From Bordetella parapertussis (GTDB lineage: Bacteria > Pseudomonadota > Gammaproteobacteria > Burkholderiales > SG8-39), in assembly GCA_945885335.1 (NCBI GenBank), contig CAMCYY010000002.1:1-41081 (forward strand): a stretch of DNA of 41,081 bases, in the 5' to 3' direction. The position numbers and the translations under genes were made by a program. Below are positions 1 to 40,916 of the stretch, piece by piece. A model generated the notes under the pieces. That model was not told where the DNA came from, did not search any database, and saw only the letters and a program-made list of their open reading frames with translations. Numbering within the stretch: position 1 is the first letter of the stretch; every line of letters starts with the position of its first letter.

Positions 1-79
1 AGGCGGCCGACTAGCCGAAGGCCAGCGGGGGGATTTCAACAAAGAACAAATCCCCCCCGGCCCCCCTTTGACAAGGGGG
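1..79. repeat. Palindromic ~95-bp repeat element, copy A (left end cut by window edge)
   Basis: Near-identical to 693..774 (aggcggccgactagccgaaggccagcggggggatttcaacaaaga[a/c]caaatcccccccggcccccctttgacaaggggg). Confidence 0.9.
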
Positions 80-3000
80 TAAACCAGGCCCGCCCCCGCT
101 TCAAGCCCCAGGGCGTGAAGTTCAGCCCCGCACAACTCAATGCCCTGCCCGGCCTTACCGTGCACGACCTGATGCTCTTGCCCATTGAGCGCGTTCGCAC
201 ACTTATGGACTCGCTGCACCTGCCGGCACCCATGGACGAAGCCACCGACCTCCTGCTCACCGAAGTCCGCGCCCGTCTCAAATACCTGTGCGACGTCGGC
301 CTCGCCTATCTAACGCTGGACCGCCAGTCGCGCACGCTCTCCGGGGGCGAGGTGCAGCGCATCAACCTCACGACGGCACTGGGCACTTCACTGGTGAACA
401 CCCTGTTCGTGCTGGATGAGCCCTCCATCGGCCTGCATCCGCGCGACATGGGCCGCGTCATCGGCGTCATGCATCGGCTGCGCGATGCCGGCAACTCATT
501 GGTGGTGGTCGAACACGACCCGCAGATCATGTTCGAAGCCGACCGCATCCTCGACATGGGCCCCGGCCCCGGCGAGCGCGGCGGCGAAATGGTGTTCTAC
601 GGCACGCCCGACGAACTGCGCGCAGCAAAGACGCTGACCGGCGACTACCTGTCCGGGCGCAAGAAGGCCGGCCTGCCTGCCCCCCTTGTCAAAGGCGGCC
701 GACTAGCCGAAGGCCAGCGGGGGGATTTCAACAAAGACCAAATCCCCCCCGGCCCCCCTTTGACAAGGGGGGGGCAACTCGAGCTGCTCGGCGCCACCGC
801 AAATAACCTGAAGAACATCGACCTCCGGATTCCGCTCGGCAAGCTGGTATGCCTCACGGGTGTTTCCGGTTCGGGGAAATCCACAATCGTGCAGGACGTG
901 CTGTACGCGGCACTGCAAAAGGCCAAGGGCAAGCCCACCGAAACACCGGGCGCGCACCGCGAGTTGCGCGGCCACGAGCTGGTGGGCGATGTGGTGATGG
1001 TCGATCAGACGCCGATCGGCCGCACCACGCGCTCCAACCCCGCCAGCTACGTCGGCGCATGGGATGCGATCCGCAACCTGTTCGCCCGCTCGCCCGTGGC
1101 GAAGGAACGCCAGTACACGCCGGGCACCTTCAGCTTCAACTCCGGCAACGGCCGCTGCCCCACCTGCGGCGGCAATGGCTTCGAGCACATCGAGATGCAG
1201 TTCCTGTCTGATGTGTATCTCAGATGCCCCGACTGCGACGGCAAACGCTTCCGCGCCGAAGTGCTGGAAGTGAAACTGCGCGGCCTGTCGATTGCCGACG
1301 TGCTGGATATGACCGTCTCCGAAGCACTGAACTTCTTCTCGCTGCCTGGCGAGGAGGAGGTCGCGCGCGTGCTGAAGCCGCTGGCCGATGTGGGCCTCGA
1401 ATATCTCAAGGTGGGCCAGCCGGTCCCGACGCTGTCCGGGGGTGAGGCTCAGCGATTGAAACTCGCAGGGCATCTGGCTGAGACGGCGTCTCACCCCCTT
1501 GCCAAAGGGGGCCGACGTGGCGGTTCTAACCCCCTTGTCAAAGGGGGCGGACGCGACGCAGTCGCGCCGGGGGTTTTATCAGGCGCAGCAGAAATCCCCC
1601 CCGGCCCCCCTTTGACAAGGGGGGGGAGAGGCAAATTGTTTTTGTTCGATGAGCCTACGACTGGTTTGCATTTCGACGACGTGGCCAAGCTGCTGCGCGC
1701 CTTTGGGCAACTGCTGGATCGCGGCAACTCGCTGGTGGTGATCGAACACAACCTCGACGTCATCGCCGCCTCAGACTGGATCATTGACCTCGGCCCGGAA
1801 GGCGGCGATGGCGGTGGCGAGATCGTGGCCCAGGGTACGCCAGACGACATTCGTTTCGCCAAGGACTCGCACACTGGGCGCGCGCTGCGTGAGTACGACA
1901 CTGCCCTTTCGGAAGCCGTGAAGTCCGGAAAGTCGATGATCACAATCCCGTTGGAAACACCCTCCAATCAACGCGCTTTCTACGAAAATATTAGTATTCA
2001 CAACGCCCGTGAACACAACCTCAAGAACATCAGCGTCGAAATCCCGCGCCAGAAATTCACCGTCATCACCGGCGTATCGGGCTCGGGCAAATCAACACTG
2101 GCCTTTGACATCCTGTTCAATGAAGGCCAGCGCCGTTACCTTGAATCGCTGAACGCCTACGCCCGGCAGTTCGTGCAGTCCGGCGCGCGGCCCGACGTGG
2201 ATGCCATCTTCGGCATCCCGCCCACGGTGGCGATCGAGCAGCGCACCAGCCGCGGCGGTGGCAAGTCCACGGTGGCCACGCTGACCGAGGTGTATCACTT
2301 CCTGCGTCTGCTTTACGTGAAGCTCGGCACGCAGTACTGCCCCGACTGCAATGTGCCCATCGAGCCGCAGAGCTTTGATGCCATCGCGGCGCGCATCCTC
2401 AAGGATTACCGCGGCCAACGGATCGGCCTGCTGGCGCCGCTGGTGATCAACCGCAAGGGCTTCTATACCGACCTCGCGAAGTGGGCCAAGGGCAAGGGCT
2501 ATGACTTCCTCCGGGTAGATGGCGAATTCCTGCCCACCACGAAATGGCCGCGCCTCGACCGCTTCAAGGAACACAGCATCGAGCTGCCGGTGCTGGACAT
2601 CACCGTCACGCCGCAGAATGAAAAGGCCCTGCGCGCGGCGCTAGAGACGGCCCTCGAACACGGCAAGGGTGTGCTGCATGTGCTGGGCGGTGTGGACAAG
2701 CTGGCGCATGAATTCGCGCTGCAAGGCGCCGCCGGCAAAACCGACCGCGTCGAACTCGACCTGCCGGTGCAGGTGTTCTCGACCAAGCGCGCCTGCCCCT
2801 CCTGCGCCAAGAGCTTTGCCGAACTCGACCCGCGTCTCTTCTCGTTCAACTCCAAGCACGGCTGGTGCCCCGGCTGTTTCGGCACCGGCTTGAAGCTCAC
2901 TGGCTTTGACTGGGACGAGGAGCGCGAAAAGACCGGCGACCAGGAACATGTGCTCGACTCCTGGCTGGAATGGCTGGAGATCAAGGAGCCCTGCCCGAGC

Positions 3001-4824
3001 TGCAACGGCCTCAGGCTGAACCGTGAAGCACTGGCGGTGCGCTGGAAGGATCGCTCCATTGCCTCGCTCACGGCGCTGGCCATTGAGAAGGTGGAAAAGA
3101 TTTTCAGCGGCATGGATCTGGAAGGCCGCGAAGCAGCGATTGCGCGCGACAGCGTGGCCGAACTCAAGTCGCGCCTCGGCTTCCTTGAGCAGGTGGGCCT
3201 CGGCTACCTGTCGCTGGACCGTTCCGCGCCCACACTGTCGGGCGGCGAGGCGCAGCGCATCCGGCTCGCGGCGCAACTGGGCTCGAACCTGCGTGGCGTG
3301 TGCTACATCCTGGATGAACCGACGATTGGCCTGCATCCGCGCGACAACACCGTCCTGCTCGACACGCTGGAGGCGCTGGAGAAAAAGGGCAACACGCTGG
3401 TGGTGGTGGAACACGACGAGGACACCATCCGCCGCGCCGCACACGTGATTGACCTCGGCCCCGGCGCGGGCAAGGTGGGCGGCTACGTGATCGGCAGCGG
3501 CACCGCCGCCGAACTCATGGCGAACCCGGAGTCCATCACCGGCCGCTTCCTGAAAACCCCGCTGCTGCATCCGCTGCATCCGCCGCGCCCCGTCACGATG
3601 AAAGGCAGCGACAAAACGCCGGCCATCACCATCGAAGGCGCGAACCTGCACAACCTGCACGATGTCACCGTGCGCGTGCCACTGGGCCGACTCACCGTTT
3701 TCACCGGTGTATCGGGTTCGGGCAAATCGACGATCGCGCGCGACGTGTTGCACGCGAACCTGGCGCGCCTGGTAGTCGCCGCGCGTGACCGCAAGAGCGA
3801 ACCGCCGATCACCGGCTGCACAGCCGTCACTGGCTGGGAGCCCGTGGGTCGCGTGCTGGAAGTGGACCAGACGCCGATCGGCAAGACGCCGCGCTCCTGC
3901 CCCGCCACCTACGTGGGCTTCTACGACGCCATCCGCAAGCTCTACGCCGAAGCAAACGAATCGCGCATGCGCGGCTGGACCGCGAGCCGGTTTTCGTTCA
4001 ACACCAAGGGCGGGCGCTGCGAGGAATGCGAAGGCCAGGGCATCAAGAAAATCGAGATGTCCTTCCTGCCCGACGTGCGCGTGCTGTGCGACGCCTGCCG
4101 CGGCGCACGCTTCAACCCGGAAACCCTGTCGGTGCTGTGGAAAGGCAAATCCATCGGCGACGTGCTGGCCATGAGCGTAGACGAAGCCGTCGAATTCTTC
4201 TCCGCCCACACCGCCATCCACCACGCCCTCCGATTGCTGCAGGACGTCGGCCTCGGCTACCTCACCCTGGGCCAGCAAAGCCCAACGTTATCCGGCGGCG
4301 AAGCCCAGCGCATCAAACTCGTCACCGAACTCTCCAAGGTCCGCAGCTTGGACATCCCTCCCCCGCGCACAGACAATCCTCCCCCGCAAGCGGGGGAGGC
4401 CGACTCGCGCAGCGAGCGGGTGGGGGCAAAACTCACCAAAAAACAACAAGCCCAAGCCGCCGCACTAACCCGCGCCCTAGCCCAACCCGCCTCCCGCCAA
4501 TACTCCAAAATCGGCCACAACACCCTCTACGTCCTGGACGAACCCACCGTCGGCCTCCACATGGCCGACGTCGAAAAACTCATCCGCGTCCTGCACCGCC
4601 TGGTCGATGCCGGCAACACCGTGGTCGTCATCGAACACAACCTCGACGTCATGGCCGACGCCGACTGGATCATCGACATGGGGCCGGAGGGTGGGGACGC
4701 GGGTGGAAGCGTGGCGGCGGAGGGGTCGCCGACGCAACTGATCGCGGCACCGAAGCAATCGCATACGAGTCGGGTGCTGGCTGAGTTTCTGCAGGAACGA
4801 AGCGTAAGCGCTCCTCCGGTTTAA
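1..4824 (+). CDS. uvrA: UvrA-family excinuclease ABC subunit A, covalent tandem of two UvrA modules (5' end upstream of window)
   Basis: Frame 1 is open from nt 1; the ORF track calls 115..4824. Module 1 (partial): [11 protein letters not shown] / [12 protein letters not shown], then [30 protein letters not shown] complete second module starts near nt 1980 ([37 protein letters not shown]) with CxxC zinc modules, [11 protein letters not shown] / [12 protein letters not shown], a second [20 protein letters not shown] and LDEPTVGLH. Colinear with E. coli UvrA. Confidence 0.88.
680..774. repeat. Palindromic ~95-bp repeat element, copy B, in frame inside uvrA
   Basis: Terminal inverted repeats CCCCCTTGTCAAAGG ... 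CCTTTGACAAGGGGG. Internal inverted repeat GGGGGGATTT...AAATCCCCCC. Translated as [31 protein letters not shown]. Confidence 0.9.
1494..1626. repeat. Composite repeat, copy C: solo terminal hairpin (1494..1511) plus a full element (1530..1626), in frame inside uvrA
   Basis: CCCCCTTGCCAAAGGGGG, then CCCCCTTGTCAAAGGGGG ... AAATCCCCCCCGGCCCCCCTTTGACAAGGGGGGGG. Same termini as copy B with a different core. Translated as [46 protein letters not shown]. Confidence 0.85.
4345..4518. repeat. Diverged repeat-derived in-frame insertion in uvrA module 2 (contains hairpin 4378..4399)
   Basis: About 58 codons lie between signature [15 protein letters not shown] and Walker B LYVLDEP; E. coli UvrA has about 5 residues there. 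Contains the perfect palindrome CCTCCCCCGC-AA-GCGGGGGAGG and the core ggccgactcgc, shared with copies A/B (ggccgactagc). Confidence 0.55.
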
Positions 4825-4846: not shown

Positions 4847-5182
4847 ATGTCAAAGTTGCGCGGTGGACATTCGAGTTCCGGGAATCAGATGCGTGCCATC
4901 CACCCGGGTGAAGTGCTTCGGGAGGAATTCCTGCTGCCCATGGGCCTCACCGCCAATGCGCTGGCGATTGCCCTGCAGGTGCCTGCACCCCGCATCAACG
5001 ATGTGGCGCGTGAGAAGCGCGGAATTTCTGCCGACACCGCCTTGCGACTGGCGCGCTATTTCGGCACCAGCGCCGAATTCTGGATGGGACTGCAGGCGAA
5101 TTACGACCTCAAGACCAGCGCCCAGGACCTGAAGGCTGTACTCAAGCGCATCCATCCGCGCAAGGACTTGCAAACCGCATAA
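4847..5182 (+). CDS. higA: HigA-family antitoxin (XRE HTH), no adjacent toxin
   Basis: IHPGEVLREEFLLPMGLTANALAIALQVPAPRINDVAREKRGISADTALRLARYFGTSAEFWMGLQANYDL is the classic HigA/VapI signature. The true start may be the internal Met at 4889. Confidence 0.85.
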   Translation: MSKLRGGHSSSGNQMRAIHPGEVLREEFLLPMGLTANALAIALQVPAPRINDVAREKRGISADTALRLARYFGTSAEFWMGLQANYDLKTSAQDLKAVLKRIHPRKDLQTA

Positions 5183-38276: not shown

Positions 38277-40916
38277 ATGCGCGAACCCACACCCCAGACG
38301 ATTTTCCTCAAGGACTACACGCCGCCCGCATTCCTGATCCCGCAGGTGGCCCTCGATATCCGTCTGATAGAGGACCATGCCATCGTAAGCGCCACGCTGG
38401 CGCTTGAACGCAACCCGGCCGCTGCTGATGCGGTTGCGCCCCTGGTGCTTGACGGCGAGGACCTGAAGCTGGAATCCATCGCCATCGACGGCCGCGAACT
38501 GGCGCCAGGCGAATACACGAACGACGGCAGGCAACTGACCCTCACGACAGTTCCGCAGCGCTTCACGCTGACCACGCGCGTGCGCATCGAACCGGGCAAG
38601 AACACCCAGTTGATGGGCCTGTTCGCCGCTGCAGCCGGCTGCTTCACGCAATGCGAAGCGCAGGGCTTCCGGCGCATCACCTGGTTCATCGACCGGCCGG
38701 ATGTAATGTCGCGCTATGTTGTGACCATTCATGCCGACCGCGAAAAATATCCGGTGCTGCTGTCCAACGGTAACCTGGTTGACTCGGGCACAGCCGAGGC
38801 GGGCACGCACTGGGCGCGCTGGGAAGATCCGTTCGCCAAGCCCTGCTATCTGTTCGCCATGGTGGCGGCAAAGCTCGACGTGCTGGAGGACGGCTACACC
38901 ACGCAGTCCGGCCGCGCAGTAAAGCTCGCGATCTACGTCGACCCGGGCAAGCTCGACCAGTGTGCATTCGCCATGGATTCACTCAAGCGCTCGATGAAAT
39001 GGGACGAGGATGTGTTCGGCCTGGAACTGGACCTCGACCAGTACATGATTGTCGCGGTGGGCGACTTCAACATGGGCGCCATGGAGAACAAGGGCCTCAA
39101 CATCTTCAACACAAAGTATGTGCTGGCGCGCGCCGACACCGCCACCGACACCGACTTCATGATGCTCGACCGCGTCGTGGCGCACGAGTACTTCCACAAC
39201 TGGACTGGCAACCGCGTCACCTGCCGCGACTGGTTCCAGCTGTCACTCAAGGAAGGGCTCACCGTGTTCCGCGACCAGGAATACGGCGCCGACATGTATT
39301 CACGGCCCGTGCAGCGCATCCAGGAAGTGCGCACGCTGCGCGCTGCGCAGTTTCCTGAGGACGCCGGCCCCATGGCCCATCCGGTGCGCCCGCAGGCCTA
39401 CATGGAAATCAGCAATTTCTACACCGCTACCGTGTACGACAAGGGCGCCGAGGTGGTGCGAATGATCCACACGCTGATTGGCGCGGAGAAATTCCGCAAG
39501 GGCATGGATCTCTATTTCCAGCGCCACGACGGGCAGGCGGTGACCTGTGACGATTTCGCGCAGGCCATGGCTGATGCTGCCGGCGCGGACCTGTCGCAGT
39601 TCCGGCGCTGGTATGACCAGGCTGGCACACCGGTCGTGGCGGTCAGCGACACCTGGGACGCTGCGACACAGCGCTACACACTGACGATTGCACAGTCCTG
39701 CCCGGCCACGCCGGGCCAGCCCGACAAGCTGCCCTTCCACATTCCATTTGCACTGGGGCTGATCGGTGAAGACGGCCGCGCACTGCCGCTGCGCCTGGAG
39801 AGCGAGAGTGCGGCTGTCACCGAGCGCGTGCTCGATGTGAAGCAGGCAGTGGAACATTTCACGTTCACCGGCATCCCTACAAAACCGGTGCCCTCGCTGC
39901 TACGCGGCTTTTCAGCACCGGTGATCCTGAAATATGCCTACGACGAAGCCGCGCTGGCCCGTCTGATGGCCGATGACAGCGATGACTTCAACCGCTGGGA
40001 AGCCGGGCAGCGCCTGGCCGGCGACCTGATCCTGCGCCGCGCCGCGGCCATGCGCTCGGGGATCGATATTGAAACACCACAGCTGTTCATCGACGCGCTC
40101 GGCAAGGTGCTGGCCAATGCCGGACGCGATCCGGCCTTTGCCGCCGAAGCGCTGTCGCTGCCATCGGAGACCTACCTCGCCGAGCAGATGGACGAGGTCG
40201 ATCCCGACTCCCTGCACGCCGCGCGCCTGGCGATCCGCCGCGACATTGCGCGCAGCCTGCGTGTCGCGTTGCTCGTCACCTGCGAAGCCGCCGCACCGCA
40301 GGGCCCCTACTCCCCGGATGCCGCATCAGCCGGCAAGCGCGCGTTGCGCAACCTCGCGCTCGGTTACCTGATGGAACTGGATGAAAGCAATATCCGCGCG
40401 CTGTGCGTGCAGCAGTTCGAGCGCGCCGACAACATGACCGACGCCATGGCGGCGCTCTCCTTCCTCGCCAATTGCGACTGCCCGGAACGCACCACGGCGC
40501 TGGATGCGTTCTACCGCCAGTGGAAGGATGAAGCGCTGGTCATGGACAAGTGGCTGGGGGTACAGGCGACATCACGGCTTGCCGGCACACTGGATGAGGT
40601 GAAGCGCCTCGCCGCGCACCCGGCTTTCGACATCCGAAATCCGAACAAGGTGTACGCGCTGATCCGTGGCTTTTGCGCAAATCATGTGCGCTTCCATGCC
40701 GCGGACGGCTCGGGCTATGCGTTTGCCGCCGACCGCATCATCGAAATCGACGCGCTGAACCACCAGGTCGCATCGCGCGTGGCGCGCAGCTTCGACCGCT
40801 GGAGGCGCTTTGATGCCGGACGCCGGCAGCATGCACGCGCGGCACTGGAGCACATCGCCGCAACCAGCGGGCTGTCGAAGGATGTTGCGGAAATCGTGAC
40901 ACGGGCACTTGGCTGA
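38277..40916 (+). CDS. pepN: Aminopeptidase N (M1 family)
   Basis: GAMENKGLNIF, HEYFHNWTGNRVT (HEXXH), LKEGLTVFRD. Start at ATG 38277 (MREPTPQTIFLKDY). Confidence 0.93.
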   Translation: MREPTPQTIFLKDYTPPAFLIPQVALDIRLIEDHAIVSATLALERNPAAADAVAPLVLDGEDLKLESIAIDGRELAPGEYTNDGRQLTLTTVPQRFTLTTRVRIEPGKNTQLMGLFAAAAGCFTQCEAQGFRRITWFIDRPDVMSRYVVTIHADREKYPVLLSNGNLVDSGTAEAGTHWARWEDPFAKPCYLFAMVAAKLDVLEDGYTTQSGRAVKLAIYVDPGKLDQCAFAMDSLKRSMKWDEDVFGLELDLDQYMIVAVGDFNMGAMENKGLNIFNTKYVLARADTATDTDFMMLDRVVAHEYFHNWTGNRVTCRDWFQLSLKEGLTVFRDQEYGADMYSRPVQRIQEVRTLRAAQFPEDAGPMAHPVRPQAYMEISNFYTATVYDKGAEVVRMIHTLIGAEKFRKGMDLYFQRHDGQAVTCDDFAQAMADAAGADLSQFRRWYDQAGTPVVAVSDTWDAATQRYTLTIAQSCPATPGQPDKLPFHIPFALGLIGEDGRALPLRLESESAAVTERVLDVKQAVEHFTFTGIPTKPVPSLLRGFSAPVILKYAYDEAALARLMADDSDDFNRWEAGQRLAGDLILRRAAAMRSGIDIETPQLFIDALGKVLANAGRDPAFAAEALSLPSETYLAEQMDEVDPDSLHAARLAIRRDIARSLRVALLVTCEAAAPQGPYSPDAASAGKRALRNLALGYLMELDESNIRALCVQQFERADNMTDAMAALSFLANCDCPERTTALDAFYRQWKDEALVMDKWLGVQATSRLAGTLDEVKRLAAHPAFDIRNPNKVYALIRGFCANHVRFHAADGSGYAFAADRIIEIDALNHQVASRVARSFDRWRRFDAGRRQHARAALEHIAATSGLSKDVAEIVTRALG

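Follow-up and report, generated by a model that had tools for sequence, protein, structure and literature searches.

In-frame copies of a dispersed hairpin-rich repeat in the linkers of a double-UvrA gene

The first 4.8 kb of contig CAMCYY010000002.1, a stretch of 41,081 nucleotides that we call the window, are occupied by a double-UvrA gene whose reading frame runs through DNA able to fold into hairpins. What this palindromic DNA is, and what becomes of it in the protein, is the question addressed here. An earlier note on the window had pointed to two such stretches and read them as insertions resembling MITEs (miniature transposable elements with inverted repeats). We conclude, at a probability of about 0.8, that the stretches are copies of a dispersed, hairpin-rich palindromic repeat, lacking an open reading frame (ORF) of their own, that were inserted in uvrA linkers and are read through.

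Repeat copies in the uvrA gene of the window

The repeat is built of inverted arms of ~48 nt. Each arm comprises a terminal hairpin CCCCCTTGTCAAAGGGGG (T: CCCCCTT-GTCA-AAGGGGG), the motif C(C/G)GAC, a second hairpin, V, and a G-box, GGGGGGATTT. The V hairpin is variable in sequence and keeps its pairing (3 bp, a bulged A, 6 bp and a GNA triloop). The right arm is the inverse, with AAATCCCCCC followed by an optional V' hairpin, absent from the window copies, and T'; the two arms lie inverted about a short loop. Units measure 91-133 nt, and ~245 nt in one metagenome-assembled genome (MAG).

In the window, the 18-mer CCCCCTTTGACAAGGGGG has 8 matches against 0.03 expected (up to 3 mismatches, both strands), all of them in uvrA. 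A covariance model of the arm, built from 43 arms, likewise placed seven arms at E<2e-5 and a sister arm at E=0.005 (match covering 4378-4423) within uvrA, and its scan of the remaining 36 kb returned no credible arm. A weak match at 39697-39757 was inspected and is not an element. The arms fall at four insertion sites, every one in frame. That all window copies lie in uvrA and none is intergenic, as the earlier note had it, holds; its two sites become four, copy A and the sister arm having been missed. The features are as follows, with a strand where one was assigned and NBD standing for nucleotide-binding domain.

1..4824, + strand: double-UvrA ORF, N-terminus missing, taken from the ORF list; protein families and the ratio of nonsynonymous to synonymous divergence (dN/dS) taken from relatives
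1..80: copy A (site SA), truncated where the window begins; V hairpin 11-25, G-box 28-36, C-box 48-58, T-R hairpin 62-79
680..774: copy B (site SB, NBD-I/NBD-II linker); T-L 681-698, CCGAC and V hairpin 703-717, G-box 720-728, loop, C-box 740-750, T-R 754-774
1494..1626: composite copy C (site SC, signature to Walker B LFLFDEP); solo T-L 1494-1511 and an 18-nt spacer, then the full element
1530-1626: full element of copy C; T-L 1530-1547, V 1552-1566, G-box 1569-1577, C-box 1592-1602, T-R 1606-1626
4378..4427, + strand: sister-family left arm (site SF, signature to Walker B of the last NBD); T hairpin CCTCCCCCGCAAGCGGGGGAGG 4378-4399, CCGAC, V hairpin 4404-4416 with a GCA loop, G-box CGGGTGGGGGC 4417-4427

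The ORF list gives the gene as 115..4824 with the frame open to the window start; the contig begins inside a repeat, and the N-terminus is therefore absent. Full-length P0001 (2111 aa, 97% identical) matches the NCBIfam UvrA equivalog twice and also carries Pfam UvrA_DNA-bind and UvrA_inter, and this close relative keeps its 2111-codon uvrA ORF intact. The host belongs to a freshwater lineage of Burkholderiales. Probably the window is an entire metagenome contig broken in a repeat, and a second contig with the neighbouring gene likewise terminates inside uvrA.

Both stretches of the earlier note were mapped as given above: a repeat with hairpin ends at 680-774 in the linker between the nucleotide-binding domains, and a composite repeat at 1494-1626 between the ABC signature and Walker B. 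As it had said, both stay in the reading frame of the ORF list and the opposite strand yields a similar peptide, the antisense ORFs 645..938 and 1491..1967 encoding peptides of the PPLVKGG...PPLTRG type. The extra hairpin and spacer of copy C amount to 36 nt, or 12 codons. At SF, a partial duplicate of the C-rich half of the sister-family hairpin occupies 4357-4366. Copy A is read by uvrA in a different element frame from copy B, to which it is 99% identical (1-79 against 693-771 of the same contig), and the orthologous site in L127/P0001, the 97% relative, holds a strongly different in-frame copy (L127 2439-2545). The likeness of copies A and B is due either to a recent conversion or re-insertion, the two sites lying 692 bp from each other, or to a contig end that is chimeric.

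Comparison with orthologues bears out the earlier note's view that these are dispersed repeat insertions and not ancestral linkers. Taken over 118 full-length orthologues, the median length of each of the seven linkers between domains falls at 13-30 residues; in the window the linker has 38 residues at SB, 53 at SC and 62 at SF, where orthologues have 22. Three orthologues of ~70% identity (P0012, P0014 and P0057) have short unrelated linkers of 13-23 residues in which the motif is absent. In a three-way DNA alignment of the window, L127 and L128, the last, a 91% relative, lacks copy B, SB being filled by a 54-nt linker of unrelated sequence. At SC, L128 carries one element, and the additional 36 nt of the window and L127 are therefore an in-frame indel. 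Site SA differs among all three, and P0001 has a fifth site, S0, with two element ends in another frame, read as TPLSKGAD.

Arm structure and copies elsewhere

As single strands, the units fold to a long terminal stem that carries a three- or four-way junction, at predicted energies of -37 to -57 kcal/mol for DNA and -62 to -91 kcal/mol for RNA (z -4.4 to -11.7 against shuffles). Copy B folds at -36.6 kcal/mol as DNA (z -6.9). A perfect stem of at least 5 bp is found in 82% of 84 distinct V segments (147 arms), against 12% of shuffles, and most V segments close a GNA triloop. When 43 arms were aligned without gaps, 98.4% of the cells expected to pair did so; 58 cells had changed on both sides, against 15.3±3.1 in shuffles (0/500), and the score stood at 0.232 in the true register and at no more than 0.019 in slid controls. 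The 688 paired cells of this alignment include no G-T wobble pair, and its GNA triloops are closed by C-G. Because the stems covary without wobble pairs and end in GNA triloops, these alignments suggest that the constraint acts on DNA, probably on both strands, rather than on RNA. The arm matched no Rfam family at gathering score or E<=0.1. No GTAG borders the T or V hairpins of the 43 aligned arms. Some V hairpins are of GACG/CGTC type (CCGACGCG...) and others read CCGACTGG, CCGACACG or CGGACAGG, the CGTC tag not being constant.

The same arms occur at 12 or more loci of the betaproteobacterial MAG, as intergenic elements of ~245 nt. Across 71 metagenome loci we counted ~110 hairpin clusters, mostly adjoining gene ends; coding calls by third-position GC content (GC3) were coarse and missed some known uvrA sites, and counts made with these calls are indicative only. 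In runs from the source lake, k-mer depth is 55-350 for the element against 5-13 for unique uvrA sequence, a 10- to 25-fold excess. The DNA sample holds a single convincing in-frame copy outside uvrA, in the C-terminal tail of a DEAD-box helicase: at L150 861-878, one arm is in frame in the basic tail of a DEAD-box-type protein with a Helicase_C domain. Searched with phmmer against 1.84 billion representatives, the 32-residue insert returned one match, the query being too short for significance, and a 62-residue double-element query against a set of 5.8 billion proteins gave 2 matches among 40 candidates and did not return P0001. Insert peptides are too short and of too low complexity for protein searches, so that the share of copies in frame is taken from the DNA sample only.

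Exact matches to the 18-mer were found in Oscillospiraceae, Geomonas, Elusimicrobia, candidate phyla radiation (CPR) bacteria, cyanobacteria, Bacteroidota and IMG/VR viral contigs. In most of them the T hairpin is followed by GGGGGATT, usually with a V hairpin between. As judged from these matches, the family of hairpin-plus-G-box arms crosses phyla. Examples from the cross-phylum loci (L001-L125) can be seen at L012 2230, L024 846, L029 4234, L045 2015 and L003 5387.

Sister families use the same linkers in other genomes. At least one of the seven linkers is expanded by 15 residues or more in 57 of 118 double-UvrA orthologues (P0003-P0120), and the peptides of expanded linkers resemble translated hairpin repeats (PSPLMGEGQGGG, NPLSPLGERAGVRG, TPALRATPP...GAAEGGGVV). 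The sole orthologue checked at the DNA level, P0101 (L225 201-6374), carries sister-family modules of T hairpin and G-box in its expanded linkers, for example CCCTCTCCCCCTTGGGGGAGAGGG then CAGGGGTGAGGGGG.

The inserts in the predicted protein and competing explanations

The earlier note had placed the inserts in loops, and structure prediction agrees. An AlphaFold model of the residues encoded by 115-2010, computed with a 48-sequence alignment, has a mean predicted local distance difference test score (pLDDT) of 75.7. The score is 45-58 in copy B against 88-91 in its flanks and 37-54 in copy C (model residues 461-504), and the elements that flank the inserts are confidently folded (86-95). Both inserts are thus predicted to form disordered loops, of 31-44 residues of Pro/Gly/Arg-rich coil. 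In Geobacillus UvrA (2R6F), copy B aligns to the linker 613-628 between the nucleotide-binding domains, and copy C falls where that protein has a loop of only 5 residues from the signature helix to the Walker B strand.

Against L127 and L128, the core of uvrA has a dN/dS of 0.049-0.057 (dS 0.22-0.34; ~4,150 sites), and the insert regions have a relaxed 0.26-0.28. Since the core ratio is about 0.05, uvrA stayed functional with the inserts in place. The possibility that the element is specially free of stops was rejected: it has 2.75 of six frames open, against 3.25 of six for random segments of the window. Because the element is not specially ORF-friendly, we infer that the in-frame state of the copies reflects a selective filter. 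Maintenance of frame and purifying selection together argue that the inserts are translated.

The history that we propose would run as follows. In a freshwater lineage of Burkholderiales, copies entered the double-UvrA gene, and the survivors would be those that lay in flexible surface linkers, kept the frame and brought no stop into it. Because the retained copies kept the frame without stops, they would be read through, giving disordered loops rich in Pro/Gly/Arg, the rest of the protein remaining under strong purifying selection. Linker copies may then turn over through indels whose length is a multiple of three and through exchange with other copies.

Several observations weigh against this account. 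The metatranscriptome runs found contain only 5-7% of the words. There is no clean empty site with a defined junction, SB of the 91% relative being occupied by its unrelated 54-nt linker. Copy A stands at a contig end, and its 99% match to copy B could be an assembly chimera. Further copies in the host genome are inferred from depth and from relatives. Lastly, four sites in the 4.8 kb of uvrA against none in 36 kb are not explained by permissiveness alone.

This last imbalance feeds the strongest competing explanation, namely that accumulation in uvrA goes beyond passive tolerance, the element being targeted to linkers (for example to palindromes resident in them) or the inserts being kept for an effect on uvrA expression or UvrA activity. 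The seven linkers that hold sister-family hairpins in other orthologues (57/118 expanded; DNA seen in L225) speak for it too. So does the synonymous divergence of the closest pair, which is lower in inserts (0.128) than in the core (0.216), although the numbers are small. Repair genes are, moreover, often the sole coding sequence of a species to be tagged by repetitive extragenic palindromes (REPs), and mutator effects of intragenic REPs have been a matter of speculation by Di Nocera et al. (PMC3733652). Against it, the inserts lie in predicted disordered loops remote from catalytic motifs, their dN/dS is relaxed, and a gene this long, with its seven flexible linkers, has many places where a landing would be neutral. 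We consider targeting or benefit unlikely, without regarding it as far-fetched.

Far less probable is that the inserts are absent from the mature protein, through an intron, an intein or a translational hop, or that uvrA is a decaying pseudogene. The hairpins predicted in the mRNA are very stable (-62 to -85 kcal/mol as RNA) and could stall ribosomes. However, no Rfam intron or other family was matched at gathering score or E<=0.1, and an intein would need more room than the inserts provide. In three genomes, all sites are stop-free and multiples of three, including the 36-nt indel, and removal before translation needs neither property. A pseudogene is excluded by the dN/dS of 0.05.

We attach slightly less weight still to an artefact in which the metagenome assembler wrongly threaded repeats into uvrA. 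The window does begin in a repeat, contigs break at these repeats, and copies A and B are 99% identical. Yet the same in-frame inserts recur at shared sites in four independent assemblies from different samples and pipelines, including ENA (window, L127), JGI (L128, L129) and Logan contigs; in Logan, the contigs of runs X3 and X4 extend over 555-1517, through copy B, and the inserts diverge along with the gene.

Least credible is that the Pro/Gly-rich segments are ancestral UvrA linkers, palindromic by chance: linker lengths at the insert positions do vary in all orthologues, but the 48-nt arm recurs almost base for base in intergenic DNA elsewhere and flanking DUF559 genes, orthologues of 70% identity have linkers of 13-23 residues with no motif, and copy B is missing from L128.

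Downstream of uvrA in the window lies a small helix-turn-helix (HTH), HigA-like gene (4847-5182). Toxin-antitoxin content varies between near-identical strains (L126 2698-5607 against L127 8672-9266): L126 has MqsR/MqsA, DUF433/DUF5615 and Gp49/HTH cassettes that are in part missing from L127.

DUF559 cassettes and comparison with known systems

Full-length relatives of the repeat point to a candidate for its mobilization. Cognate arms enclose a DUF559 ORF at 11 independent loci of Betaproteobacteria and Clostridia, a count from which the L140 remnant is excluded. At these 11 loci DUF559 was the sole ORF found between cognate arms, and no transposase was seen there.

L134 1472-1939 (= L135, L174): DUF559 cassette, inverted arms and ORF
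L145 2210-2686: DUF559 cassette, inverted arms and ORF
L199 134-580: DUF559 cassette, inverted arms and ORF
L147 1627-1986: DUF559 cassette, inverted arms and ORF
L201 1501-1893: DUF559 cassette, same or variant inverted arms and ORF
L208 1501-1875: DUF559 cassette, same or variant inverted arms and ORF
L219/L221/L223 701-1081: DUF559 cassettes, same or variant inverted arms and ORF
L140 3185-3277: DUF559 remnant, first 31 codons only, beside an intact left arm

Long versions measure 450-500 nt, with ORFs of ~120-134 aa. At three independent loci, a 130-aa DUF559 ORF stands between L and R arms 447-477 nt apart, starting 7-12 nt past the G-box and ending inside the right arm; in two of the three the stop is the TGA of TTTGACAA. 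In the cassettes listed, the stop codon is in, or directly against, the right arm. The ORFs match Pfam PF04480 (DUF559) with E from 2e-29 to 6e-30 across positions 3-109 of the 109-position profile, and the closest solved structure is 3HRL (E=1.4e-14). The DUF559 genes of P0129 and P0135 sit within arrays of short repeat copies. In three more distant homologues, of 58-60% identity, the inverted arms are perfect and the T hairpin is a variant, CCCCCTGACAAGGGGG, and two loci in Clostridia have another T hairpin with the T+V layout unchanged. The close DUF559 homologues (P0123-P0242) are mostly on contigs of less than 3 kb, consistent with cassettes and repeat arrays breaking short-read assemblies.

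A related arrangement occurs in Escherichia coli. The K-12 gene ycjD (DUF559; L218 4041-4830) has its TGA stop in a T-like hairpin, CCCTCTCCCTGAAAGAGCGAGGGGG, and is followed by a duplicated remnant of its own 3' end and then by a palindromic repeat, which we take to be BoxC. All 5426 E. coli genomes contain this repeat, with a per-genome median of 16 places; ycjD occurs as a single copy, in 3378 of the 5426 complete genomes (62%). Strains without ycjD were considered as empty sites and were uninformative, as a TetR/RND island lies there instead. Literature searches on DUF559, ycjD and boxC brought up no paper that connects them with dispersed palindromic repeats.

The co-location of DUF559 genes with repeat arms is solid. 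Our hypothesis, drawn from this arrangement in sequence, is that DUF559 mobilizes the repeats. A survey of PD-(D/E)xK proteins placed DUF559 together with Vsr and with a homing endonuclease of a group I intron (PMC3424549), and a cyanobacterial genome paper put a DUF559-containing gene in the EDxHD homing endonuclease family (PMC9403480). No target-site duplication flanks 24 short copies or the DUF559-bearing units, the flanks merely extending the inverted symmetry (GGTTTA...TAAACC), and for this reason the repeats probably did not spread by DDE cut-and-paste. The label 'MITE-like' of the earlier note is accordingly too loose, there being no target duplication at more than 20 copies and the ORF-bearing relative encoding DUF559 and not a DDE transposase. 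Spread may instead depend on the DUF559 endonuclease of full-length relatives. More broadly, and tentatively, the uvrA inserts may be ORF-less members of a cross-phylum set of small selfish elements, of which we met no earlier description, in which DUF559 recognizes the hairpins or a cruciform and spreads the cassette and its derivatives as RAYTs do REPINs. The sister families would then include the UvrA-linker repeats of 'PLPxGEGxGVRG' type and perhaps the repeat beside ycjD.

In-frame palindromic repeats represent selfish DNA that can lengthen protein loops while function is kept; here, one gene of an essential pathway took up four to five inserts and is still strongly constrained. To our knowledge, many bacterial palindromic repeats are without a known mobilizing enzyme. 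For CGTC REPs, this lack was stated by Di Nocera et al. (PMC3733652). The repeated tight packing of a DUF559 gene between arms offers a testable candidate enzyme and suggests a possible function for a widespread domain that includes E. coli YcjD. The repeats also interrupt metagenome assemblies and yield ORFs that are spurious or extended, and their recognition improves annotation.

The closest precedent is that of REPs lying wholly inside genes, reported by Di Nocera, De Gregorio & Rocco 2013 (PMC3733652). The tagged genes included Thioalkalivibrio uvrA (two REP dimers), both uvrA genes of Opitutus terrae (two inserts each) and R. conorii uvrB; the intragenic REPs encode 20-80 residues, and their neutrality in flexible linkers was discussed (PMC3733652). 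As in our case, these are short, mostly extragenic palindromes found occasionally in frame in genes, uvrA among them. Unlike them, the uvrA family described here has no GTAG and no consistent CGTC, its arm consists of two hairpins and a G-box, its target is a Burkholderiales double UvrA of ~2,000 residues with 4-5 sites per gene, and its associated ORF is DUF559, not a RAYT. The likeness to Rickettsia palindromic elements (RPEs) drawn by the earlier note stands as far as it concerns palindromic repeats in frame in functional genes, with the peptide tolerated at the protein surface (PMC10969869, PMC3733652). RPEs, whose in-frame insertions have been reviewed (PMC10969869), are not the sole precedent, since intragenic REPs in uvrA had already been described (PMC3733652). 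By description, RPEs differ from the present family, which has a free-living GC-rich host, another architecture, a mostly intergenic distribution and in-frame cases concentrated in one gene.

REPIN/RAYT systems resemble the DUF559 cassettes in their inverted hairpin pairs in arrays, the absence of target duplication and the small gene flanked by cognate repeats. The flanked gene here is a PD-(D/E)xK DUF559 gene and not an IS200-like Y1 transposase, and there is no 5' GTAG. No RAYT lies between the arms, where the flanked genes are all DUF559 (no genome-wide RAYT search was made). Bacterial MITEs such as Correia, Nezha and ERIC are similar in their size (90-250 nt), their terminal inverted repeats, their appearance as internally deleted forms of ORF-bearing elements and their occasional in-frame fusions, but the present repeats lack both a target-site duplication and a DDE transposase partner. 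With the Vsr-like/EDxHD endonucleases (I-Bth0305I, 3HRL, YcjD), the cassettes share DUF559 as the ORF between arms; here, however, it appears as a free-standing gene framed by structured inverted arms, not in an intron or intein.

The uvrA inserts have the defining features of intragenic palindromic repeats, being dispersed repeats that are in frame in a known gene and absent from its homologues. Searching the literature for the hairpin sequence turned up no paper. Since intragenic REPs and RPEs have already been reported, the kind of in-frame repeat insertion seen here is known; the repeat family itself is new and is set apart from the GTAG and CGTC REPs by its tags.

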